A DNA stretch of 63,814 nucleotides, filler included, from Collodictyon triciliatum (lineage: Eukaryota), in the NCBI GenBank assembly GCA_043381765.1. It is 12 parts of 12 records of this genome, joined end to end, with 100 filler letters (N's around TTAATTAATTAA, not from the genome) between each part and the next. Parts side by side here need not be neighbours in the genome. Positions count along the whole stretch, not along the records: positions 60,386 to 63,814 come from JBHJMP010005248.1; 11 more parts are not named here. One strand, 5' to 3'. Shown in pieces: positions 27,554-63,814 of the stretch (the first letter of the stretch is position 1; the number at the start of each line of letters is the position of its first letter). Both the position numbers and the translations under genes were made by a program. Under the pieces are notes generated by a model, which was not told the origin of the DNA, searched no databases, and saw only the letters and a program-made list of their open reading frames with translations.

Positions 27554-29954
27554 TTATTTCATGATGAAAAATGCTACCTTTCCTATTTCCTTTGGTGGTT
27601 GGTCCGGGCGAGTATAGTTACTCTTGAAGCTATTAGTACTAGTGGTTGGAACACCGATTCTACTGAAACCTAGGGAGCATGAGTCTGTCATTTTCAGTGA
27701 ATTTATGAATATTAACAAAATAATCCTATTATACATATTTCATGCATGATTTCATACGAAAAAGAAAATTTATGTAGAGTTTGATTTGTCAGTGTTTTAG
27801 AACCAGAATTGATACCAGAATCTTTCTGTTGAGATTCTTTTGGTTCATTGGATGAAAAGCGTGAGCCATTAGAAAGGTAGTTGGCATCGGTTCTTGACGC
27901 ATATGGAGATTTTGGAGGAGTCTTTGTTCCGGACGTAGGGTTCATTTGAATCTATTCGAAGTATCTGAATTATTTCTCATTCGAGACGAAATGAAGGATT
28001 TCTTCCACGTATGATGACATAAAACATATAAAAATACCTGACCGCTCGTGAATTTTGATTGAATGTCACTTCGCTCCTGAGCAAATAATGAGTTTAGTCT
28101 CGATTTCATCATCTTAAAATCATCAGGGGAAGGAGGACACACAAATATGTATATTTATATTGAGTAAGAAGAGTTCAATCATATATCATATCACAAACAT
28201 CTGGTTTTGAGGGCTTGTATTCTTGACCGATTTTACTAAAATTCATTTATTTTACAGACATGGTTAGTCATTTGAAGTATATAAATGCGAATCATGAGTA
28301 ATTGTCCTCTAATATCACATCTATGATGCCCCAAACCTCTCAAATGCCCATTTTCCAGCAGCAGATGACGGTATGTCTTTGATTGGTGAACGATTAGGTA
28401 CCGAATCATCAACCACAGTACTAAGCAGCGAGGGTCTATAGTTACACATGTAGCACATAAAGTGCATAATATTCAATTCATAAAAATTATGAAGAAAGGA
28501 AGGGAAGGTATATACGTTCATAAAAACAAATACATACGGGCGATTAGATGCGAATGGCGAGGTTCCAAAACCAGTTTTTGAGTTATCTGAGAATATGTAG
28601 CAATTTATTTAATTTTTTTTTTTATAGAGATTGCACAACGAGTAAAAAATGTACGGAATGAAGATACTTGCGCTGATGCACACCTTCTTTTGCTGAACTT
28701 GGGCGTGAAGAGTAATCAAATGTAAAGCGAGTACTTTGGTCACTCGGGCTTTCAAGCCGCCTTGGAGGAGATGGATATGGTTTACGGGTAGTAATCTGTA
28801 TAGTAAAGAGAAATATTATGTTTGGGGAAGAAATTGTTGGATATGTTTGAGGCGACCAAGGCATAGACACATACCCATAGGCAAATTTATCACAAAAATA
28901 AACCTTGGGAATATTAACACAATTGATAAGTCAACACAAAAAAATATAAGCAATGGTGCAAGGTACTTCTGTCGTATCGCGCACAGGATCATCTGACGAT
29001 CTGTCAAACTAGTATGTGTCTCAGTATCAGGATTAGAAATGCCGATTCATTAAAAAAAAATAATGCAAAGAGTATGAGGATAAATTTCTAGAAAGGAACA
29101 TGAGCTATTCGTTTTTTAATACATGGGTGGCTGATTTGGCAGCTGATTGACTAGATTGTGCTAAAATTGCATACATGAGTTTATGAGTCAATTAGTATAC
29201 CTCGGGATTATTAGATCATTCTGCTAACTTAATGATAATTTTTCTTTGAATCGAATAAAGGAGAAAAAAATTGTAATACTTTTTATAATATTTGTCCTCC
29301 AAAATGTAGAATAAGCATGAGGAAAGGGGTCCAAAAACAAGACAAGGAAAAATTAATCTCGAAGAAAACAAGAAACCTAGTAAAACGATATATGAATACA
29401 AACCAGGTCTTTGGGCAGGCTTGTCTATAAACTGTGCTAGAGAATCATAAGAGTCATACTTGGAATTCAGCTGCTCAGAGTATTTGGAAGCATGTGCTGT
29501 CCCTGGTTTGGATGTATTTGAGGAATAGGGAGACGGCTTTCCGGATGGCTATATTTCAAGAGTTCTAGCTTTAAAACGATGAGGACTGAAGACGAATTTA
29601 AAAGCTAAAGATCTTCATACATACATACATACATACATACATACATACATACATACATACATACATACATACATACATACATACATACATACATACATAC
29701 ATACATACATACATACATACATACATACATACATACATACATACATACATACATACATACATACATACATACATACATACATACATACATACATACATAC
29801 ATACATACATACATACATACATAAAGGTAAAAAAGTAAAAAAAAGTAAAAAAAAAGTAAAAAAAAGTAAAAAAAAAGTAAAAAAAAAAGTAAAAAAAAAG
29901 TAAAAAAAAGTAAAAAAAAGAAAAAAAAAAGTAAAAAAAAAGTAAAAAAAAAAG

Positions 29955-30030
<76 letters not shown>

Positions 30031-32316
30031 AAAAAAAAGTAAAAAAAAAAAAGTAAAAAAAAGTAAAAAAAAGTAAAAAAAATGAAGTAAAAAGTACAGA
30101 GGTATGTATTCACAACAAAGACTGTAGAATCTCTCACCCCAGACACACCAGTGGCACTTATTGGAGGTGACGTAGGCCGGACGGTATCCTTTTTTGAGAT
30201 CCCTCCAGCTGTATATAATAAAAATATAGTAAAAATAAAAATAAAAATAAAAATGCGTTATTTTTTTATTAACATTATAGAAAAGAATAAAAGGGTGTAT
30301 GCGTTTTCGTAAAAAAACAAATGTTGTAATTTCGAATGATTAGGTCGTACTGCCTCCTGATTCTTTCAGTTTCTGGAACCGCTCAAGAAATTCTTTGAAT
30401 CCCATATCAGATACTTGAGGCTTTCCTGGCGGATTATCAGTGGCGCTCGACGTTTGCTCACTAAAGTAAAAAAATAAAATAAAAGAAGGGCACGAAAATT
30501 GAAAAAAACTTTTGATGCTCAGAAATTATATATATTATACGTTCGGCTTGGGACATTTGGTGTGCCATAACGATGCGGATAGATGCCGATGTTAGGAGCG
30601 GGCTTTGAATAAGTTTGTCCAGTGGAAGAAGTCCGATTTCTGTGTCATTATTGTGACTTGTATTAAAATAATTATATAAGATAATTATTATTCTGAGCAC
30701 TATACCCAGGATTCGATGATGTAGGAATTGCATGAATTTTGGTCTCTTCGTTAAGTCTAAAACCAGATGTTTGAGATTGATATTTTGAGGCAGTCGATTC
30801 TGATGCGGCAGACCTGGATGATTTGGTTCGAATAGTAAGTAGTAGTTGTAGTAGGAGTAGCTATTATATACTCTATTTTTTTTTTTAAAAAAAAACTATT
30901 GAGACTCATAGACCGAGCAACATCCGACAAGAAAAATTACTTGGAGGCGGTTTTATAATCGTCCTAAAGAGCAACATTTAGATGACTTCACATTCTTGAA
31001 ATTATGGGGGAAAATCACAATTCATTCACGTAACGTTAAATGATTATGAATTTTACTAGTGTTGTGCTCCGTCTGGGCAAAACTTGGTCAGATTTTGGTT
31101 GTCCTTGTGACGTTGTAGGCTCAGGCCTTATTTATTATTGTAAACATATATTTTAAAAAGAATACATAATTTCGTTACGGTCACCGCCCTATTCAAACAC
31201 TTAACTTGGGAGCTATAAAATCGAAAGGAAGAGTTTTTAATGAACATGCTGACAATCATACCTCGATTTCGAAGCTCCATGAAGAATTTTGCTTGGATCT
31301 CCAAAGCGTTGGTATGGATCCGCCACCTGAAGGAATACGTTAACAACATACCAAGGGCTGAGCTGTGGGACGATAACTGGCGAGTTATCAGGTATTTGGA
31401 CACATACAACAACGCAGTGTAAGGGATTGTCTTACTTTCACCCCAGTTGGAGAAGATGGGCGTTCTGTGGGCTTGAATGCATCAATGGTGGTTGTCGGCT
31501 TTGGGCGTCCCTATAAGTGAATTTATTCATATTTTCTCCTGCCCATAGTCTTAAATTTGGCAAACAAAACAAAACAAAACAAAACAACACATAATGAAAG
31601 GAATGTTACCAGATATGTACTGAATCTATTCGAGTCTGTGTCAGGGGCGTCAGAACCTGGGTCGTTTAAAACGCATAAAGTTTTTACAGAAAGAGAAATC
31701 TGCATAAAACGGACTTTTTTATTAAAAAAAAAAAGGAGGAAAAGCATATGACTATAAACCAGGTCGATTTCCAGATAGAATACTGGGGACAGTTCCAGAC
31801 GGAGCAAACTTATCGAGGGTGGCACCAGCAGCAGTAGGCCCTACGTGGAAATATATCAATAAATCAAAAAGTGTATTATAAATCATATTATCAAAATGGA
31901 TTAATTGCTTTCAGTATCCCTGGCGGTCCATAATAGAATTAATGACGGTGAAAAGGGATCGTTGTAACAAAAGGTTTGCAATACACGTATCAACACAAAC
32001 TGGTGGATGTTTCGACACGGGTTTTCAGTCGACTCATGATCGCATCGATGTCCTTTGCAGAAGATGACTTTGGGGCAGCCGCAGCAGCCGACTGGAACGG
32101 AATGACCGAAGGGGTCTTTTGCGCCGTGATCGCCGCGGCGGACGATTTTTGGCCCGAGTTTTGAGCAGAGGAAAGAAATGCTGTTGAGTTTCCCGACGAG
32201 CTGCTTCGGCCGCCGAACTGTGCGTTGCCTGCGGCTGAATAAGCTCCGATCGGAGGCGATGAGGAGCGGCCACCCGGAGAAGAAGCGCCATACGAGCCGG
32301 ACGGGCGGGAGTGCAT
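27554..32316 (-). CDS. Uncharacterised Ser/Pro-rich multi-exon protein, partial
   Basis: GC-richer first exon MHSRPSGSYGASSPGGR...DIDAIMSRLKTRVETS followed by many short low-complexity exons with GT-AG boundaries. Confidence 0.5.
29244..29270 (+). mobile_element. LINE 3' tail remnant in intron
   Basis: CTTTGAATCGAATAAAGGAGAAAAAAA matches the tails at 34963-34993 and 1074-1099. Confidence 0.55.
29617..29822 (+). repeat. (ATAC)n microsatellite
   Basis: Directly visible; many similar simple repeats occur throughout the window. Confidence 0.9.
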
Positions 32317-33192
32317 CGGACGTTGTGTTGGGACAGTGATGCGTCGCTTAGAGAGTTGCAGTGGACTATGCCTTTGCTGACTATGAGCGGCGATACGTTT
32401 TACATTTGCTTGTGGATGCTGTGAAGTGTGCTCATGGGGATTGCTTGTTGTGGTGGATCGTGAAGCTAAAGTCTCACAAACCAACGATCACAAAGACGCG
32501 AAAGCAAGGATACTGTTCTGGAAAATATAATTTAAACTATCATGGATGCTAATGTAGCATTTATAAATCGCAATAATTTCTTGAATCGAATAAAGAATAA
32601 TAAAGATTGCAATAATTTGAAAAATTCGCACAAATTTTTTTTTATATATGTAAATTTCTTTTTTTTTTTTATTCTAAAAGTCTTAGCTGTTGAGCCCGTC
32701 TCAACAATCTTTCATTCAACCATCAGGCAAGTAGTTCCAAAGTAGGTGGTGATGTGTGNNNNNNNNNNNNNNNNNNNNNNNNNNNNNNNNNNNNNNNNNN
32801 NNTTAATTAATTAANNNNNNNNNNNNNNNNNNNNNNNNNNNNNNNNNNNNNNNNNNNNACAAACAAACAAACAAACAAACAAACAAACAAACAAACAAAC
32901 AAACAAACAAACAAACAAACAAACAAACAAACAAACAAACAAACAAACAAACAAACTAACTAACTAACTAACTAACTAACAAACTAACAAACTAACAAAC
33001 AAACTACAAAAAGGTCATTAAACACATCCAACGAGACAAAAAGAGCCGCAACGGAAGCACAGTCAGTTTCCGCGGCGAATTTTTTTCTGTAGTATAAATT
33101 TCAACTGTATGTTGGTGGGTTTGTTTCTGTGAGCCAAAATTCCCAGGAGTTGATTTATCCCATGCCTCACATACCTCGCTCTAGGTAATGTA

Positions 33193-34567
33193 GAACCACA
33201 CTATCGAAATGTGAAAACATCTCTAAAGTCGATTGCAAAGAATGCGGATGGCTATGATAAAATCAACGACACAGTTTATTGTGTCATAATTTGGTCACCA
33301 ACACTTATCTGTTTGCAAAATGCTAGATATTGAAATCACAACTACCCCCAACAATCGATGAAATGTGTTTTCTGTACGCTTTAAAGACAATCGGAATAGT
33401 TTCACAAGATAGACCCGCAAGTTTAAAAAAACCAGATACGAGTAAAGACATGATGACATTTTATCTCAATGATTTTCGATTCCTTTTGTCCCAAGAAGAA
33501 CGCTTTCCGTTGGTTGGACTGTCCCATGTATTACCATACTTGGCGAAGCAAACGTTAGTAGCTTATCATCATAACATTAAGGAGCATTATGTTAAGAGGC
33601 TACTGCGCTTTATAAATCAAACAGTTCCTAAATATGAGAATATGACGGAAGCTATTAAAAAGATAGAGTTACGAAACTTAAAAAAAAAAAGCCATCTTCA
33701 AGAATCTCGAAATACCGGAGCAATATTAAGAATGGATTAAATGCATTTGCATCATATCATTCCCAGCGACGTTGTAAAAGGTATCGAAAATAACCCAAAG
33801 TCAATCCGAATAAGTACATTCTATATCTGATTTACATGAATCGTATTTTTGAGGGCATCGGGCCCAAACTGTTTCAACCAATCTCTAAAAGAACTACCAA
33901 TATACCATGTCATATTACTCTAGATACTGCATGTTTGATAGATATATTAGTATCAAATGGAAATACATAATTAAAGAAGAATATATCAGGATGCAATGAG
34001 ACCATATGGGATAAGTTTTTTGAAATGAAGAAGAGGGTTTTTCATCAAAGAGACCACCATTTTAAATACATGGTACAAACACACGGCTTGGCAGTGTAAT
34101 TATTGTTTGAAAAAAAAAGGTATTTCAAATTCAAAATTCAAATATAACCAAAACAAAGAATATGTTTATATACATGAACTTTCCGAAGAGCAGCTATCTT
34201 TATTAGCGAAAAAAAAAAAGTAGTAGTGGGCGCAGGCAAGTTTAATTTTGTTTACATGGTGGGTGAGACAGGTAAGAAATTACGTTATTCAGCGCACCAA
34301 AAAAGACTTGATAGCAAATTTCTTAAAAATCACGAAATACTTTTGCGCGAGAAAAAAGTGCAATGCTTCAGGGATATGCATGGCAACAGGTTTACAAAGT
34401 GTTGTTTCTTTTGGTCATATGACTTTTGAAGAGAATCAGCGGTTTGAGGCATCAAGACTATCTTTAATCTATTTAGAGACAGAACTGAGTAAACATAATT
34501 CATGCACGGTCAATTATGAAAAAATTTCGAAATATGAATATATGAAACCAAGTTACCAGATAGAATT
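33193..34567 (+). pseudogene. Truncated, frameshifted Fanzor copy (N-terminus to just after RuvC-I)
   Basis: Colinear with ~61506-62865, roughly 85-90% identical by eye in a sampled stretch. RuvC-I Asp codon changed to GGC (34229-34231). Several stops and frameshifts. Ends at a LINE fragment. Confidence 0.85.
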
Positions 34568-34993
34568 GTCACAAGGGGACATGTGCTGCGGTCCTTAAGG
34601 AGCGTGCGTGCATTCTCTCGCTCTAATGATTCACCCGAACGAGAAATCGATGTATACAGGCTTGAGAGCCTCGTGCAATGCAGCTTCCTGAACAGCCTGC
34701 TGAAACACGCTCGCATTCTTCGCTACTCTGACCGCAAGCGAAGAGAGATGTGGGAACGTGTCGTAAGATATCTCCCACAGTATATCCAACCCTGCTACCC
34801 ACGCAGCCAATCAACCAGTTGGGTCGCTCGCCTGACCAACTCGCTATCATCGATTTCTTTCTAGCGTTTGCTTCTTCCTAGTAGTGTCTTCTCCTACTCA
34901 CGTTTGCTCTCTACCATGCGCGCCTATCTCGCCTTGCCTTTGTATGGCATAACCATGTTGCACTTTGAATCGAATGAAGGGGAGAGAAAAAAA
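34568..34993 (+). mobile_element. 5'-truncated LINE 3' fragment abutting the Fanzor remnant
   Basis: Aligns with 681-1099 from GTCACAAGGGGACAT to the tail TTTGAATCGAATGAAGGGGAGAGAAAAAAA. Confidence 0.75.
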
Positions 34994-35451: not shown

Positions 35452-38090
35452 TTAAAACGTGTGAAACAGATTCTCGTAGAACGAAACACCTTCTGGGGTA
35501 TCGTCTCGGCAAAGAAGACCCAAACGCTCTGCGCACTAGGATTTTAAATAATTTCTCAATATATCTTACAATATTGTTATGAGATAAAGGTTCCATCGAA
35601 AATCCAAGTCAGAAATGTTTAAATACCAGGAGCTTTTCCTTGGCAATAAAAACAGGAATGCTCTGCAACTGTGATAGCTGGTATGGTGTCATCTTCATTC
35701 GTTCTTTCACCTACTCCGTACATTGATTGTCACAATAATATAATGGTGAATGGTGGGACGTTTTAATGTTTGTGATTTTGAAAGGGAAGAATACGAAAGA
35801 TGTAACAGCCTCTGATGATTGCCTTTCGTCATGGTTTCCTAAGTTAAAATAACGAATCAGTTTTTAAATAAAATTAAAGTTTTTTTTTTGTTTTTTTCCC
35901 CACTTCTTGATTCGATTCAAAGTTTTTTTCCTTTATTCGATTCAAAGCTAACTTTGAACTTCAATAATTTGGACTTTATTGTAAACTGCATTAAACTTAA
36001 ACATGTAAGATATATGACAAAATCCTTTATTACGAGATTGAAGGACTTGGAGTCCGCTTTCAAATTTTCTGGGTGTAATGGGTAAATTGAGCTGACCAAG
36101 GATTTTACATGCCTGGTGCATATCATCCGTCGTGATGAAGGCTTCAATCAGAGGTATTTAGGGAGGATCAAATGTATGCATTCAAAAATATTCATCTTTT
36201 TCTGTTTATTTTTCACATTCTTTTTACATCATACCTGTTCCTCGGGCTCTGTTATAGAGACAAAAAGCATCAGGAAGTGTCATCATCCCACCACTTTGCT
36301 GGATTGGTTGCTCGAGGAAATCAGAAAGCTGCCGTGCAAGTTCGCGGTGATAAGAAACCCCGGCTGACTCTCTTGGTGAATAGTAAATTAGAGTAAGAAA
36401 TAAGGGGAAACGAATTAATTCACCACAATGCGTCCATGGTTATTACAAACACTCCTCCAAATATATGAAAAATAACAGAGAATGATATAAGGAATCAAGA
36501 CTAGTTTTAGAATATTGAGAAAAGAAAAAGAACAGGAATTATGAGGACCATTCCAAAGCAAAACCCCTTTTAAATAATGCTGCCCAGTCATGATGGTAGA
36601 CAGTAAGACACATACATACATACATACATACATACATACATACATACATACATACATACATANNNNNNNNNNNNNNNNNNNNNNNNNNNNNNNNNNNNNN
36701 NNNNNNNNNNNNNNNNNNNNNNNNNNNNNNNNTAAGATATTCTCTCCTGTAATTCCTTACTTTGTCACGGGGCTAATAATACCAAAGTTAAATAGAGTAG
36801 CCTGCAGCTCGTCGTTTCCAGTTGATTCCTTTGGAGCACTAGAAACAAGCTTTTCAGCAAGTTGCACCTAAAAATTGTACAGGTAAGCAAATATGGTATA
36901 CTCGAAATTTAATTATGGGATATAAGCAAATAATAAGAGAAACACCCCTTTGATTGGAAAGAAATGCTAGTATTCCTGGCATAAAATTGAAATAAAAAAA
37001 AGGAAACCATTTCTTTTCCTTTTTCCATTAAAGATGACAAATCGGCAAACGCCTGGTCCAAGGTCATGTCTGTTTGTTGCATCTTTTTTTCTTCAGTTCG
37101 TATAATACCGGCTGTAAAGTATATTAGAGAGATGTAAATAAATGATTAAATAAATTAAAGTAAGTTTATTCGGCTCGAAAAAAAAAGGACGGGTAACTAG
37201 AGCCAAATTCCCAAATGGAATCGTTTATCCATCCAATAAAAAAAAAAAAAACATGTGAGAAGTGCTACTAAGCGAATAAATATATGAATACTAAACAATT
37301 ATTAAATATCAAACCAACTCCTGCTTGATAAGTTGAGAAAGAAGGTACGACAGGTTGAACAGGCTTTTGTTTTACTATCTACCAAGCAACATTTTTGGCT
37401 TAACGGGTGATAATAAACAGAGAAAGTTCACAATTTACTGAAGAATATCTCATGATATATAATAATATATAAGGAATCTTGAAGAATAGAAAAAAATCAT
37501 GCATGTGCAACTTCAGAAATTGTATTCGCTCACCTCCCACGCTTTCTTTTTCATGGCCATATCTACTTTGCTTGAAAACACATCGCCCTTTCCAGAATCA
37601 AACCTTATGTAAAAGAATTCGGGCTCTGCTTTTCCTTTGACAGTTACTTTGACCTTTAATCTCCCATAAGCAAATAAACCAGCAGCCTAAATATCATCAA
37701 AGCGTAATTTTTTGATTTATAAAATGAGAAAGAAAAAAAAGTACATCAAACGTCATATCCCGAGCTTGCATAGGTATATGGTTATGTTATCCACACCTCC
37801 ATAGATAATTACACATGGGGAAATGTTGGTGAGGAGCAAACAATACCGTGAATTTAAAGTCATTCACCAATGACAAAGGTAGGCGATGCTTGGTTGACGA
37901 TGAGAGCAAGAATATGTTGTGTGTTGAAATGATTGCAGAACATGACAGTAATTCTACTTTATTTCTATATATCAAAGTATAAGTTAATCAACATGGATTA
38001 TCAACAAAAAAAAAAAAGGAATTGTCAATACAATGCGGTAATGATGTTGTCGTTGAATACGAGATTCGTTATAGCCTGGGAGAACCGAAT
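35452..38090 (-). CDS. VPS36: ESCRT-II subunit VPS36/EAP45, multi-exon (5' end uncertain)
   Basis: Exons AGIIRTEEKKMQQTDMTLDQAFADLSSLMEKGKEM, FGIISPVTK, YHRELARQLSDFL...GGMMTLPDAFCLYNRARGT, AERLGLLCRDDTPEGVSFYENLF*; GLUE-like N-terminal exons. Confidence 0.9.
35891..35947 (-). mobile_element. Two tandem LINE tail remnants in a VPS36 intron
   Basis: TTTTTTTCCCC...ATTCGATTCAAAG followed by TTTTTTTCCTTTATTCGATTCAAAG. Confidence 0.55.
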
Positions 38091-38253: not shown

Positions 38254-38629
38254 GAAGAAGAAGAAGAAGNNNNNNNNNNNNNNNNNNNNNNNNNNNNNNN
38301 NNNNNNNNNNNNNTTAATTAATTAANNNNNNNNNNNNNNNNNNNNNNNNNNNNNNNNNNNNNNNNNNNNTTCGTTTTGTTTTCGTTTTGTTTTCGTTTTG
38401 TTTTCGTTTTCGTTTTCGTTTTGTTTTCGTTTTCGTTTTCGTTTTCGTTTTTTTTTGTTTGTTTGTTTTGGTTTTGGTTTTGGTTTGTTTTGTTTTGTTT
38501 TGTTTTGTTTTGTTTGGTTTGGTTTTGTTTTGGTTTGTTTTGGTTTGTTTTGTTTTGTTTTGTTTTGTTTTGTTTTGTTTGGTTTGGTTTTGATTTGGTT
38601 TGTTTTGGTTTGTTTTGTTTTGTTTTCTA

Positions 38630-39090
38630 TAGGGAGAGCACCACCCACCTGGGACAAAGTCTGCAGACAGCGCCGTGCGAATCAGCTGTTCAGGGTCCGT
38701 CATGTAACCGCCTTTGTCGCCTGTGCTCTTGTCCGAGGAAGGCGCCGCTGCGACCAACGACAGCTTTTCGGCTGCATTAATCTGTTCGAACTGCCCATGG
38801 CGAGCTTTTTTCCCACCCGACAGAGCTGCAGACCAAAAGGCGTGTAGTAAGGCGCATGTCGAAGTGAGAGGACTTGTTTGGGGTTGTTTGGAGTTCTCGG
38901 TGCGGTCTTGCGCAGCCTCCAAATCCCTCGACCTTGTCTCCGGTCCGTGCTTGTCTCCAGCAGCAACAACAATGGCGGATGCTGCAAAGCCGCTTTGTGC
39001 TGAAAGTGCGGCACTCGCGCAGAGTTTGCTTGCGGGAGACAAACGAGCCCAGGTACGCGTGAAGCTGAGAAGCAGGCGCGTGTGCCACAT
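38630..39090 (-). CDS. Possible first exon of an unknown protein (N-terminus resembles a targeting presequence)
   Basis: GC-rich ORF MWHTRLLLSFTRTWARLSPASKL...ADFVPGGWCSPY; runs into a repeat and the contig end. Confidence 0.35.
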
Positions 39091-57730: not shown

Positions 57731-58484
57731 GAATTTGTGGGAATGAAATGTGGTGTGTGAGTGTTAATNNNNNNNNNNNNNNNNNNNNNNNNNNNNNNNN
57801 NNNNNNNNNNNNNNNNNNNNNNNNNNNNNNNNNNNNNNNNNNNNNNNNNNNNNNNNNNNNNNNNNNNNNNNNNNNNNNNNNNNNNNNNNNNNNNNNNNNN
57901 NNNNNNNNNNNNNNNNNNNNNNNNNNNNNNNNNNNNNNNNNNNNNNNNNNNNNNNNNNNNNNNNNNNNNNNNNNNNNNNNNNNNNNNNNNNNNNNNNNNN
58001 NNNNNNNNNNNNNNNNNNNNNNNNNNNNNNNNNNNNNNNNNNNNNNNNNNNNNNNNNNNNNNNNNNNNNNNNNNNNNNNNNNNNNNNNNNNNNNNNNNNN
58101 NNNNNNNNNNNNNNNNNNNNNNNNNNNNNNNNNNNNNNNNNNNNNNNNNNNNNNNNNNNNNNNNNNNNNNNNNNNNNNNNNNNNNNNNNNNNNNNNNNNN
58201 NNNNNNNNNNNNNNNNNNNNNNNNNNNNNNNNNNNNNNNNNNNNNNNNNNNNNNNNNNNNNNNNNNNNNNNNNNNNNNNNNNNNNNNNNNNNNNNNNNNN
58301 NNNNNNNNNNNNNNNNNNNNNNNNNNNNNNNNNNNNNNNNNNTCGCAGAGCGTTTTGAGCAGCCTACAGCGACATATAACATTCGATTGAATTGATTTCT
58401 AAAATAAATAACAAAAAAAAAATATGTATGATAGGTAGAAAAGGGGAATGATGGTATGATAAAAAAAGGACAAGAAAACAGAAA

Positions 58485-60385: not shown

Positions 60386-60471
<86 letters not shown>

Positions 60472-61406
60472 GATGATAAAGGTGAGTAAAAAAAAAAAAA
60501 AAACGGATCGAGTTCTAGCCATTGAGCCACGGGTAGAATGGGACAACAAACTACAGGAGAAGGGTTTAAGGTCTCAACCTCAAGCTCAAGCCACCAGCCC
60601 ACGGGCAGCATGATAAGTATGAATAAAATAATCAATATTGATTGTTCTGATTCATTCATCTGTTTCTTTTTTCTTTTCCTCTTTTCTTTTTTCTCTTTTT
60701 TCTCTTTTTTCTCTTTTTTTCTCTTTTTCTTTATTTTTCTTCGGTCTCATTCAGTCTGTAAATGGATAAACTTCATTACAAGGGTTGTGACAAACTTGGT
60801 TTTATCCCTTTCAAGGAACAACACTTTTTATACAACGAAAGTGTACCCATGTATATAGCAATTTATTGCACAGACAACCATCGAATTAAATATGGATTGA
60901 CGAAAGCTGGAGCTTTGATGAATCCAAGAAACAATCTGAATAATATAATAGTATAATCAGGATATATAGTAAGGTTAAAAAATACACAATAATCTCATTC
61001 TATTCCTGTAACTAGTTTATATTTTATTTTCATTTATGTAATATTAAAACTCAAAAATTCAAAAAATACAAACAATCTGTTGCGCTGGCCCAGACAGAAC
61101 CCAGCCTATAAACCTGCCACCAAATACGCATTTCAAAAAATAAATCCTATCCACACTTGCGGCGGTAATAATGTTGTTTGGGGCCGATATGTTGACTTTC
61201 AGTCGCAATTGCTATATGGCCGTCCTTTCGAACTCGCCGAATCGGCTCTCAGCGTTTTGTCTCAAATAATCACTCGTAAAAAACTTTGTGTGTTTGTTTG
61301 CCGCAATGCGCACATTTTGAAAGTCTCGGCAGATGCTTAATTTTACCTAAATTGATTTTATGCATTTTTTATTTTATTAAATTGACTGATTGACTAAGGT
61401 TTTATA

Positions 61407-61430
61407 AAAATTGAAAACTCGGTAGTTTTC
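61407..61430 (+). promoter_or_regulatory. AAAATTGA motif and overlapping 7-bp hairpin upstream of the Fanzor ATG
   Basis: AAAATTGA at 61407-61414, ~46 nt before the ATG; GAAAACT-CGGT-AGTTTTC inverted repeat at 61413-61430. Confidence 0.25.
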
Positions 61431-61460
61431 TAAAGGAAAACGTAAAACAAAGACCTTCAC

Positions 61461-63290
61461 ATGAAGAAAAGAAAACGCCTTGAGTTTGAGAATCTAAAGT
61501 CTGGAAAACCAGACTATCGAAATGTGAAAGCATCTCTAAAGTCGATTGTAAAGAATGCGGATGACTATGACAAAATCAACGATACGGTTTTATTGTGTCA
61601 TAATTTTATTATCGACACTTATCTGTTTGCAAGATGTTACATATTGAAATCACAACAACTCCAAACAATCAATGAAATGTTTTTTTTTAATGCTTTAAAG
61701 ACAGTCGGAATAGTTTCACAAGATAGACTCGCAGTTTTTAAAAAAAACCAAATATGAGAGATGACATGATGACTTTTTATCTCAATGATTTTCGATATCT
61801 TTTGTCCCAATAAGAACGCTTTCCATTGGTTGGACTGTCTCGTGTTTTACCGTACTTGGCGAAGCAAATGTTAGCAGCTTATCATTATAACATTAAGGAG
61901 CATTTTGCAAAGAGGTTTCTGCGCTTAATAAATCAAACAATTCCTAAAGATGAGAATATTATGGAAGCCATTAAAAAGGGAGAGTTCCGAAAGTTAAAAA
62001 AAAGCCATCTTCAAGAATCTCGAAATACCGGAACAATATAAAGGATGGACAATAATGCATTTGCATCGTATCATTCCCAGCGACATTGTAAATGGTATCA
62101 AATATGACGTCAAAGTCAATCCAAATAAGAACATTCCATTACTGATTCACATGAATCGCATTTTTGAGGACATTGGAACCAAACTGGTTCAACCAATCTC
62201 TGTAAGAGCTAATTATGTGCCATGTCATATTACTCTAGATAATGCATGTTTGATAGAGCTATTAGTATCAACTGGAAAAACATTATTACTGAAGAATATA
62301 TCAGGATGCAAAGAGACACTATGGGATGAGTTCTTTGAAATGAAGAAGAGGGACTTTCATCAAAGAGACTACAGTTTTAAATACATGATACAAACAGACG
62401 GCTTGGCAGTGTCATTATTGTTTGAAAAAAAAGGTATTTCAAATTCAAAAAACCAAGAATATGTCTATATACATAGATGAACTTTACGAACAGTTATCTT
62501 TATTAGTGAAAAAAATAGTTGGAATGGACGCAGGCAAGTTTAATTTTGTTTACATGGTGGACGAGACAGGCAAGAAGTTATGTTACACGGCACACCAAAC
62601 AAGACCTGATAGCAAACCTCTTAAAAATCACAAAATACTCTTGCGCGAGAAAAAAAATGCAATGTTTCAGGGATATGCATGGAAATATATTTACAAAGTG
62701 TTGTTTCTTTTGGTCTCAGGACTTTTGAGGAGAATCAGCGGTTTGAGACATTAATAGTATCTTTAATCGATTTAGAGCAGAACTGAGTAAACATAATTCA
62801 TGCATGGTCGATTATGAAAAAATTCGAAAATATGTATCTATGAAATCAAGATACCAGATAGAACTATTCATATTTTATGAACACGTAACTTTTCTAAAGA
62901 TGAGATGGAGACAGTATGTTAATACAAAAAGAAGTGAACAGTTGTGTATGGACTGAATCGAAAAGACATTTGGCAATGATGTTGTACTGGCGTATGGATG
63001 CTGGAGCAGAAAATGTCAGGTGAAACATTTTATGCCTACAATCGAAAGAGGATTACGAAAAATACTATCCAAATGTTTTGAAACAGTTAGTGTAGATGAA
63101 TTTAGAACATTCAAGATGTATGCAACTGCGAAATAGAACTGGATTATATGAGACTGAAAGGAAATAGGAAAACAGTGTATAGATGTCTCATATGTAAAGG
63201 ATGCAATCGGTCAGAAAGCAAACAAAGTGTATTCTTGACAAGGGACTTAAACAGCGCTAATAATATACTCAAGAAAGTTCTGTTAACCCT
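61461..63290 (+). pseudogene. Fanzor (Fanzor1-like, TnpB/Cas12-related RNA-guided endonuclease), near full length (~600 aa), decayed
   Basis: N-terminal MKKRKR. RuvC-I IVGMDAGK (D 62527-62529). ELSKHNS...KMRWRQYVNTKRSE...TFG..VVLAYGCWS..QVKHFMPT..GLRKIL. RuvC-II VSVDEFRT (E 63098-63100). Cys-rich segment ..CNC...CLICKGC. RuvC-III TRDLNSANNIL (D 63244-63246). Stops at 61811 and 62954 and several frameshifts. Confidence 0.9.
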
Positions 63291-63323
63291 TCCAAAAAAA
63301 AAAAAACACTCTCTTTAAAAAAC

Positions 63324-63451
63324 AGGCTGTTGGGTCTCATCTGGCAGCCTTCACCACTACGCAATCTTCGTGAAAAAAATGGTGAGACCTTGAATTCTAG
63401 CGCACCAGGTTCTCCAATCGAAAGATTGGTATACTCCGCCTAGTAAAATTC
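63324..63451 (+). ncRNA. Candidate Fanzor omegaRNA scaffold
   Basis: Begins just after the Fanzor ORF. Contains stem AGGCTG/CAGCCT, stem TCACCA/TGGTGA, a CCAATC-GAAA-GATTGG tetraloop hairpin, an enclosing GAATT-CTAG/CTAG-taa-AATTC stem, and loop GGTCTCA complementary to TGAGACC. Confidence 0.6.
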
Positions 63452-63814
63452 TGCTTGTATTGGACAATAAAAAAAATCATTCTATACCTCGATTGTAAAT
63501 ATATATTTTCCATAAATAGTCATAAAGGAACCATTCCGAGCACACATATCTAATTTGTTGTTATGGTAGGACGAAGCAACCGCGCGAACGTGTTTGCGAT
63601 GAAGTTATTGCGCGAAGGTGTCTTTTGGATGATTGAATTTATCATCATTTCTCTACTTTTTTTTTCAATTCAAAACTGCTTTTATCATACTTATTTCTTT
63701 CTCATTCGATGTCCTAAAAACAGGGCGTACATAATCTCATCTGTTTTTTTTTTCTTTCGTTTTTTTTTTTTTTTTTTTCATTAAAGAATTTTCAGTTTTA
63801 CCTTTTTTTTTACT

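Follow-up and report, generated by a model that had tools for sequence, protein, structure and literature searches.

Positions 61461–63373 (+ strand) of a 63,814-nucleotide stretch of Collodictyon triciliatum DNA very probably hold a real but dead copy of a gene encoding Fanzor1, an RNA-guided nuclease. The stretch, referred to here as the window, comprises 12 parts of the NCBI GenBank assembly GCA_043381765.1 joined end to end, and the gene copy – hereafter copy 1 – lies in the part derived from JBHJMP010005248.1 (window positions 60386–63814). Fanzor1 proteins are eukaryotic RNA-guided nucleases now being developed into compact tools for genome editing; how they spread between giant viruses and protists is an unsettled question of evolution. 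Copy 1 adds a member to a known virus-linked Fanzor1 clade and is not a new system.

The reading frame of copy 1 begins at an ATG at 61461, where it encodes MKKRKR, and ends at a stop codon at 63371–63373. The gene is intronless and near full length, with its motifs scattered over three different frames of the + strand. Frameshift-aware translation divides it into eight segments (61461–61745, 61748–62002, 62004–62432, 62434–62655, 62658–62780, 62783–63118, 63121–~63304 and 63305–63370). Stitched together from 61461 to 63315, the reading comes to 621 positions, including 8 X marks, and the tail to 63370 contributes ~20 more codons. Full-length relatives from public data, designated here by P numbers, map collinearly onto 61461–63361 by tblastn (residues 1–642 of P0158 and 2–604 of P0004). 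A previous sequence-only reading of the window had proposed a near full-length, intronless gene spanning 61461–63290. The stitched reading and the map to P0158 bear this out and confirm the start, while the coding region extends ~80 bases beyond the proposed end. Every motif listed in that reading is present in copy 1 when frameshifts are taken into account, and the features are as follows.

61461–63373 (+): Fanzor1 pseudogene copy 1, delimited by collinear tblastn maps of P0152, P0153, P0002, P0003, P0004 and P0158.
61461–61478 (+): basic start MKKRKR, from translation.
62391–62402 (+): QTDG, the Fanzor1 TDG motif of the WED domain; T318 is invariant and D319 and G320 nearly so in 26 relatives.
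62521–62535 (+): GMDAG, RuvC-I; it retains the catalytic Asp but has Ala in place of the Pro of the Fanzor DPG.
62658–62780 (+): ~41-residue in-frame insertion between RuvC-I and the following helices, from the alignment of relatives.
62993–63007 (+): YGCWS (family consensus YGxWS), 30 residues upstream of the alternative glutamate.
63092–63118 (+): VDEFRTFKM, with the alternative RuvC-II glutamate (Ealt, codon 63098–63100) six residues ahead of the first zinc-finger position.
63098–63118 (+): EFRTFKM, from translation.
63119–63222 (+): damaged zinc ribbon; at the first Cys site one base is lost and TA remains, with CNC and CLICKGC following.
63121–63141 (+): CNCEIEL, from translation.
63238–63255 (+): TRDLNS, with the RuvC-III catalytic Asp; R580, D581 and N583 are invariant in the family.

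The YGxWS position corresponds roughly to the site of the RuvC-II glutamate in canonical TnpB. The Cys-rich zinc ribbon is there as previously described, but it is not intact, with three of its four Cys left. The ~41-residue insertion after RuvC-I is common to copy 1, P0002 and P0158 and is missing from P0004 and the viral clade; judged by these alignments, it is a marker of the subclade to which copy 1 belongs. An intron at 62658–62780 was considered and rejected, as P0002 and P0158 translate a segment of the same length in frame.

Assignment of copy 1 to Fanzor1 rests on its likeness to known proteins and solved structures. We searched 1.84 billion representative proteins with a read-through piece of copy 1 (62747–63133, 129 amino acids with X at the TGA) and obtained 1075 matches at E ≤ 1e-3, 241 of them at E ≤ 1e-10 (best 1.8e-33) – a likeness far beyond chance. 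Among solved structures, the same piece matched PpFz1 (9cf0, E 1e-5), SpuFz1 (8gkh, 0.0036) and GtFz1 (9cer, 0.11). A second piece (61998–62480) matched 9cf0 (E 7.8e-4) and 9cer (0.038) at upstream residues of the same chains. Both pieces found Fanzor1 entries only, and at collinear places. A family profile built from 26 full-length relatives reached the same three entries far more strongly (PpFz1 9cf0, E 2e-97; SpuFz1 8gkh, 1.4e-91; GtFz1 9cer, 7.3e-74). Next best were LaTranC (E 0.02) and a Cas12m (0.07), and no Fanzor2 or TnpB chain was matched at E ≤ 1.

The catalytic residues lead to the same assignment. Columns T318, D372-P373, E530, T533 and R580-D581-N583 are invariant among the 26 relatives. 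Aligned with the 8gkh chain, family residues D372, E530 and D581 fall on SpuFz1 D383, E541 and D606 (fusion offset 394), and D372-P373 on D383-P384; the Glu of LDEYKTS in this chain is E935 (SpuFz1 E541) and the Asp of NRD is D1000 (SpuFz1 D606). According to the SpuFz1 report (PMC10432273), D383, E541 and D606 coordinate two Mg ions. The D of GMDAG, the E of VDEFRT and the D of TRDLNS in copy 1 sit on these family-invariant catalytic columns.

We also compared copy 1 with published Fanzor fingerprints. Yoon et al. 2023 (PMC10711439) give a RuvC-I DPG and a glutamate six residues before the zinc finger, at an alternative position (Ealt) rather than ~50 residues upstream of the finger, and describe a TDG motif in the WED domain as characteristic of Fanzor1. 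In copy 1 the glutamate codon at 63098–63100 is followed by F-R-T-F-K-M and then by the first zinc-finger position, and TDG is encoded within 62391–62402. The RuvC-I fingerprint reads D-A-G (62527–62535), whereas 26 of 26 relatives have D-P and SpuFz1 itself has DPN; the DAG of copy 1 looks like a decayed ancestral DPG and not like the mark of a different family. Bao and Jurka 2013 (PMC3627910) define a broader Fanzor/TnpB motif, D-X(125,275)-[TS]-[TS]-X-X-[C4 zinc finger]-X(5,50)-RD. From the RuvC-I Asp codon (62527) to the Thr codon (63107) of copy 1 there are 580 bases, or ~193 codons, and RD lies 12 residues past the second CxxC; the pair reads T-F instead of T-S, and the first of the four Cys reads Tyr with one base lost, whereas relatives and other copies retain the Cys and the base. 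By this comparison the motif appears whole in the family and damaged in copy 1. The sequence-only reading had called the gene a TnpB-derived Fanzor with its three RuvC catalytic positions in place. Our results narrow this to Fanzor1, and sequence comparison revealed neither a failure to align to the fold nor a D/E/D triad lying off the catalytic positions.

The window contains a second, more heavily damaged copy.

33189–34574 (+): Fanzor1 pseudogene copy 2, from blastn, translation, tblastn and pairwise alignment.

Copy 2 is 85.7% identical to copy 1 61507–62863 over 1382 columns (blastn). It is truncated at both ends, lacking the first ~14 codons and everything from about residue 480 of P0158, and so is without RuvC-II and RuvC-III. 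Its stops and shifts are numerous, and Gly takes the place of the RuvC-I Asp. Differences between the two copies fall on 52 of 446 first, 58 of 448 second and 53 of 450 third positions of codons (11.7%, 12.9% and 11.8%, respectively). Because they differ equally at all three positions, this divergence indicates neutral decay and not purifying selection.

Two in-frame premature stops interrupt copy 1.

61811–61813 (+): premature stop TAA; copy 2 has E (GAA) and P0158 has Q at this codon.
62954–62956 (+): premature stop TGA; relatives have K or N at this codon.

Copy 1 also contains seven frameshifts. Five occur at runs of A8–A13 (61740–61747, 61996–62003, 62425–62432, 62650–62657 and 63294–63306) and two lie outside homopolymers (62781–62782 and 63119–63120). 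Further lesions are the DPG Pro to Ala change, a Ser to Phe change in the TS pair and a Cys to Tyr change at the first zinc-finger Cys. With seven shifts and two stops, copy 1 can no longer make the protein. The previous reading had likewise held the copy to be inactivated by TAA 61811, TGA 62954 and indels, and both stops are indeed in frame; its placement of the frameshifts at A-runs applies to five of the seven and fails for 62781–62782 and 63119–63120. A non-standard genetic code was considered for TAA 61811 and rejected, given that copy 2 has GAA there and that the frameshifts would persist.

To either side of the coding region, the limits of a repeat unit can be read from public sequencing data. 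Contigs of four public runs were aligned to 61040–63500 at 80% likeness. In two of them, X2 and X3, 401 and 394 contigs, respectively, cover 61080–63446, with likenesses ranging from above 99% to below 90%, and many joints in these contigs skip 42–232 bases – that is, they are internal deletions. The Fanzor1 element is a multi-copy family with many diverged copies. That the organism hosts a family, as previously suggested, is upheld by the second copy in the window and by the ~400 diverged pieces that X2 and X3 each contribute. No listed public run contains half the words of the copy 1 locus, and no RNA run is listed as containing it. Loose contig ends pile up at 61080 and 61086, placing the left limit of the unit at ~61080–61086; on the right, cover drops after ~63360 and none is left by 63447. 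These limits give a repeat unit of ~2.3–2.4 kb (~61080–63446), which consists of a ~380-base non-coding leader, the open reading frame (ORF) and a short tail, with nothing else encoded.

61080–61460 (+): non-coding 5' part of the repeat unit; X2 and X3 contig depth is the same as over the ORF.
63374–63446 (+): non-coding 3' part of the repeat unit, from cover by other copies.

Among the variants listed, some copies carry an extra A behind 62777 (6 contigs in X2, 5 in X3 and 2 in run X4), and some read G at 63120, followed by an extra T. Both kinds of variant coincide with the two non-homopolymer shifts of copy 1 and with its Cys to Tyr change. In the 3' tail, just ahead of the end of cover, 63416–63431 (+) can pair as a hairpin of 6 perfectly matched bp around a GAAA loop (CCAATC GAAA GATTGG). 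The fold of 63200–63480 gives a weak signal (z −2.45; equal stability in 4 of 200 shuffles), and part of this interval is coding tail conserved with P0158. An Rfam scan of the whole window returned 0 matches.

Relatives of copy 1 are plentiful in public data. Its nearest proteins are P0152 (331 amino acids, 59% identity, NCBI), P0153 (NCBI and JGI), P0002 and P0158. P0158, the closest full-length relative found, is an intact 648-amino-acid ORF on a 2610-nt public metagenome contig (ENA); the copy 1 read-through is identical to it at 362 of 610 aligned positions (59.3%) and to P0004 at 247 of 574 (43.0%). Candidate stretches encoding relatives numbered 262 of 402 in IMG/VR and 460 of 598 in JGI metagenomes, often on contigs named GVMAG and on contigs of 150–290 kb. 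Judged by these counts, the wider Fanzor1 clade is very common in aquatic data. A search of viral contigs with the window piece gave 7 pattern matches and 0 confirmed, and a protein atlas search with P0152 gave no usable match.

A quick LG+G4 tree search of 70 rows, picked by similarity to P0004 and rooted at the midpoint, grouped copy 1 with P0152, P0153 and P0002 (Shimodaira–Hasegawa-like approximate likelihood ratio test, SH-aLRT, 99). This group is sister (96) to a clade with IMG/VR loci L081 and L083 and P0004, and both lie inside a 47-row clade (97) that contains all 28 IMG/VR rows. By this tree, the copy 1 lineage branches from within a group of Fanzor1 genes that come from giant-virus metagenome assemblies. 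The sequence-only reading had inferred a nuclease family of the organism's own, possibly uncatalogued. That suggestion is not supported: the lineage is nested in a Fanzor1 clade abundant in giant-virus assemblies and aquatic metagenomes, an intact 648-amino-acid relative of 59% identity is already public, and both window copies are dead.

The sister clade shows how such an element can be organized. At L003 4631–7952, a 3.3-kb element has inverted repeats of 30–33 bp with TA on both sides and encodes a divergent transposase of 346 amino acids with DDE_3 (E 1.4e-13) and HTH_28 domains. A small ORF of 69 codons lies between its Fanzor1 and transposase genes, and its right repeat starts ~20 bases past the Fanzor stop, after a short GC hairpin. 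The L003 contig is the same contig as L081, and the sister element also occurs on L001, L005, L006 and L007. A homologue of the L003-type transposase is present in 39 of 159 viral or metagenomic loci, a set in which some contigs are counted twice, once per collection. Bao and Jurka 2013 (PMC3627910) describe Fanzor1 carried in mariner elements, derivatives that have Fanzor alone, and viral Fanzors intermingled with cellular ones.

No counterpart of this transposase was seen beside copy 1, in agreement with the previous reading: tblastn of the Tc1/mariner-type transposase of the sister clade against the window gave nothing at E ≤ 10, and Pfam on ten larger window ORFs gave no transposase, neither scan being exhaustive for transposases or aimed at an IS607 serine recombinase. 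Copy 1 has no significant terminal inverted repeats and no recognisable mariner-type ends.

Several points weigh against our reading of copy 1 as one dead member of a mobile Fanzor1 family. Pfam returned only noise and no family match for the seven copy 1 ORF pieces, and PF07282 (Cas12f1-like TNB domain) sees even the relatives weakly, with one of five tested (P0015) above the cut-off. The RuvC-I and RuvC-III pieces of copy 1, taken alone, found no solved Fanzor in PDB. Five of the seven frameshifts are in A8–A13 runs and so may be assembly errors. Whether X2 and X3 are RNA or DNA runs is only a guess from their labels. A terminal repeat scan of the copy 1 flanks was at chance level, with 175 of 200 shuffles scoring equally high. 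An inverted-repeat candidate picked by eye (61083–61108 against the reverse complement of 63324–63352) scored 11.5, which 13 of 2000 shuffles reached and control windows approached (up to 11.0); it was dropped, its right arm lying inside the conserved coding tail. Finally, because the rows of the tree were chosen via P0004 and the root is at the midpoint, no direction of virus–host transfer can be claimed. Separately, relatives bear a precomputed PF26935 label, which local Pfam scans never returned.

Three alternative explanations were weighed against these data. The one that survives best is that both copies are what remains of giant-virus DNA after its integration, as an endogenous viral element, and do not belong to a cellular transposon family. 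Giant-virus contigs from IMG/VR abound in the nearest larger clades; the element is AT-rich, at 34.6% guanine plus cytosine (G+C) against 59.9% in a kinase–WD40 ORF elsewhere in the window; and virus-integrated Fanzor elements are described by Bao and Jurka (PMC3627910). However, when the whole window was compared by tblastx with the 159 loci and up to 6 kb of their flanks, only the two Fanzor copies matched, other rows reaching ~30 bits. The other ORFs of the window are of ordinary cellular types (kinase plus WD40, HMG box), the high repetition with deletion derivatives is transposon behaviour, and the small clade of copy 1 includes proteins under NCBI and JGI genome annotations. An integrated viral remnant is a possible but weaker reading, and we consider it unlikely.

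We think it very unlikely that the gene is less broken than it appears – that the homopolymer shifts are errors of long-read assembly and the locus, or an allele of it, encodes a working nuclease. The A8–A13 context of five of the seven frame changes would fit this alternative, as would the retention of all three catalytic residues (D, E and D) in copy 1 and the intact frame that other family copies show at two of its lesions. Setting the A-run shifts aside nevertheless leaves the two in-frame stops (61811 and 62954) and the two shifts outside homopolymers (62781–62782 and 63119–63120), together with Tyr for the first zinc-finger Cys and DAG for DPG; the gene would be dead even then, because these remaining lesions suffice. 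The even spread of substitutions over codon positions between copies 1 and 2 also argues against a working gene.

We can dismiss a Fanzor2, a prokaryotic-type TnpB (IS607 or IS605 cargo) or a chance assembly of motifs as extremely improbable: the order D ... E ... zinc finger ... RD is shared by the entire TnpB superfamily (PMC3627910), but the profile strongly matches the three solved Fanzor1 and no Fanzor2 or TnpB chain, copy 1 has the Fanzor1-specific TDG motif and it aligns collinearly to relatives across ~640 residues.

Taking copy 1 as a decayed Fanzor1, we can sketch how its intact ancestor may have worked, by analogy with SpuFz1, PpFz1, GtFz1 and the TnpB literature. The ancestral protein would have bound a guide RNA whose template was the 3' end of the element encoding it, and 63374–63446 would carry the end of the guide-RNA scaffold. 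It would have cut double-stranded DNA beside a short target-adjacent motif, through a single RuvC site using the alternative glutamate. The protein was probably nuclear, the MKKRKR start that copy 1 has in common with P0152 and P0158 being a putative nuclear signal. The element may have been mobilised in trans by a DDE transposase, which in the viral sister clade is of Tc1/mariner type and encoded by the adjoining gene, and the Fanzor1 lineage may have been exchanged between giant viruses and protist hosts.

The copy 1 locus adds a host lineage to those with a high-copy element that encodes Fanzor1 alone, and the phylogeny ties this lineage to Fanzor1 genes on Tc1/mariner-like transposons in giant-virus genomes. 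Copy 1 itself is a fossil; in practice it can serve to probe the full assembly for intact members of the family. We tentatively raise the prospect, which we rate as less probable than not, that this organism, and those behind X2 and X3, may carry hundreds of copies of a compact Fanzor1 element encoding ~620–650 amino acids and recently shared with giant viruses, and that some copies may be active and still intact. In that case, virus-to-host traffic in RNA-guided nucleases would have a natural arena in this host, which would also provide a new small editor.

The rest of the window looks like eukaryotic nuclear DNA, with GC-rich ORFs set within AT-rich, microsatellite-laden sequence. Its other features are as follows.

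11806–15708 (−): intronless ORF of 1300 codons encoding a protein kinase with a C-terminal WD40 propeller; 59.9% G+C, with one N block inside.
17055–18005 (−): ORF with a C-terminal HMG box (PF00505, E 1.6e-8); 51.3% G+C.
10977–11480, 23413–24349, 29598–30339, 38314–38847, 44009–44619 and 52408–52997: microsatellite or low-complexity arrays.
5415–60385: paired N runs (44 N, 12 bases, 44 N) every ~5.5 kb, seemingly masks or scaffold gaps and not biology.
11903–12024, 36663–36732, 40078–40578 and 57769–58342: larger N blocks.

The arrays are built of units such as CAAA, TATC, ATAC, TAT and poly-T; they make up much of the intergenic DNA and result in long spurious ORFs. N letters in the window total 2235 bases.

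Of the full-length relatives found, P0158 is the closest to copy 1. The two share the MKKRKR start, the subclade insertion and the C-terminal tail LFKKQAVG; unlike copy 1, P0158 is uninterrupted and has DPG, TS and all four zinc-finger Cys. The solved Fanzor1 proteins – SpuFz1 of Spizellomyces punctatus (8GKH), PpFz1 of Parasitella parasitica (9CF0) and GtFz1 of Guillardia theta (9CER) – have the same domain order as the family and share its catalytic columns, namely the Asp of DP(G/N), the Glu six residues before the zinc finger and the Asp of RD. They are distant from copy 1 itself, of which single pieces reach them at E 1e-5 to 0.1. They also differ in that the copy 1 subclade has the extra ~41-residue insertion after RuvC-I, and in that copy 1 is a pseudogene.

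At the level of the element, copy 1 can be compared with the Spu-1 locus, which is ~2.1 kb long, with a single ORF between inverted repeats and many full and partial copies (PMC10432273). The repeat unit here is similarly compact (~2.3 kb), has a single ORF and is multi-copy; unlike at the Spu-1 locus, inverted repeats are not established at copy 1, where the flank scan did no better than chance. PGv-1 of Phaeocystis globosa virus and PUl-1 and PUl-4 of Pythium, which we liken by description, have Fanzor1 in Tc1/mariner elements, as in the sister clade. PUl-4 is a Fanzor-only derivative dependent on transposase in trans (PMC3627910). Unlike these Tc1/mariner elements, the window shows neither a homologue of a transposase nor ends recognisable as mariner-type.

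Prokaryotic TnpB, such as ISDra2 TnpB, is described in the literature as a RuvC nuclease whose zinc finger separates RuvC-II from RuvC-III and whose guide RNA derives from the 3' end of its element. The profile of the 26 relatives reached no solved chain of prokaryotic TnpB at E ≤ 1. Compared with these proteins, the family to which copy 1 belongs has its glutamate at the alternative position, a RuvC-I of the DPG type and ~200 residues more.

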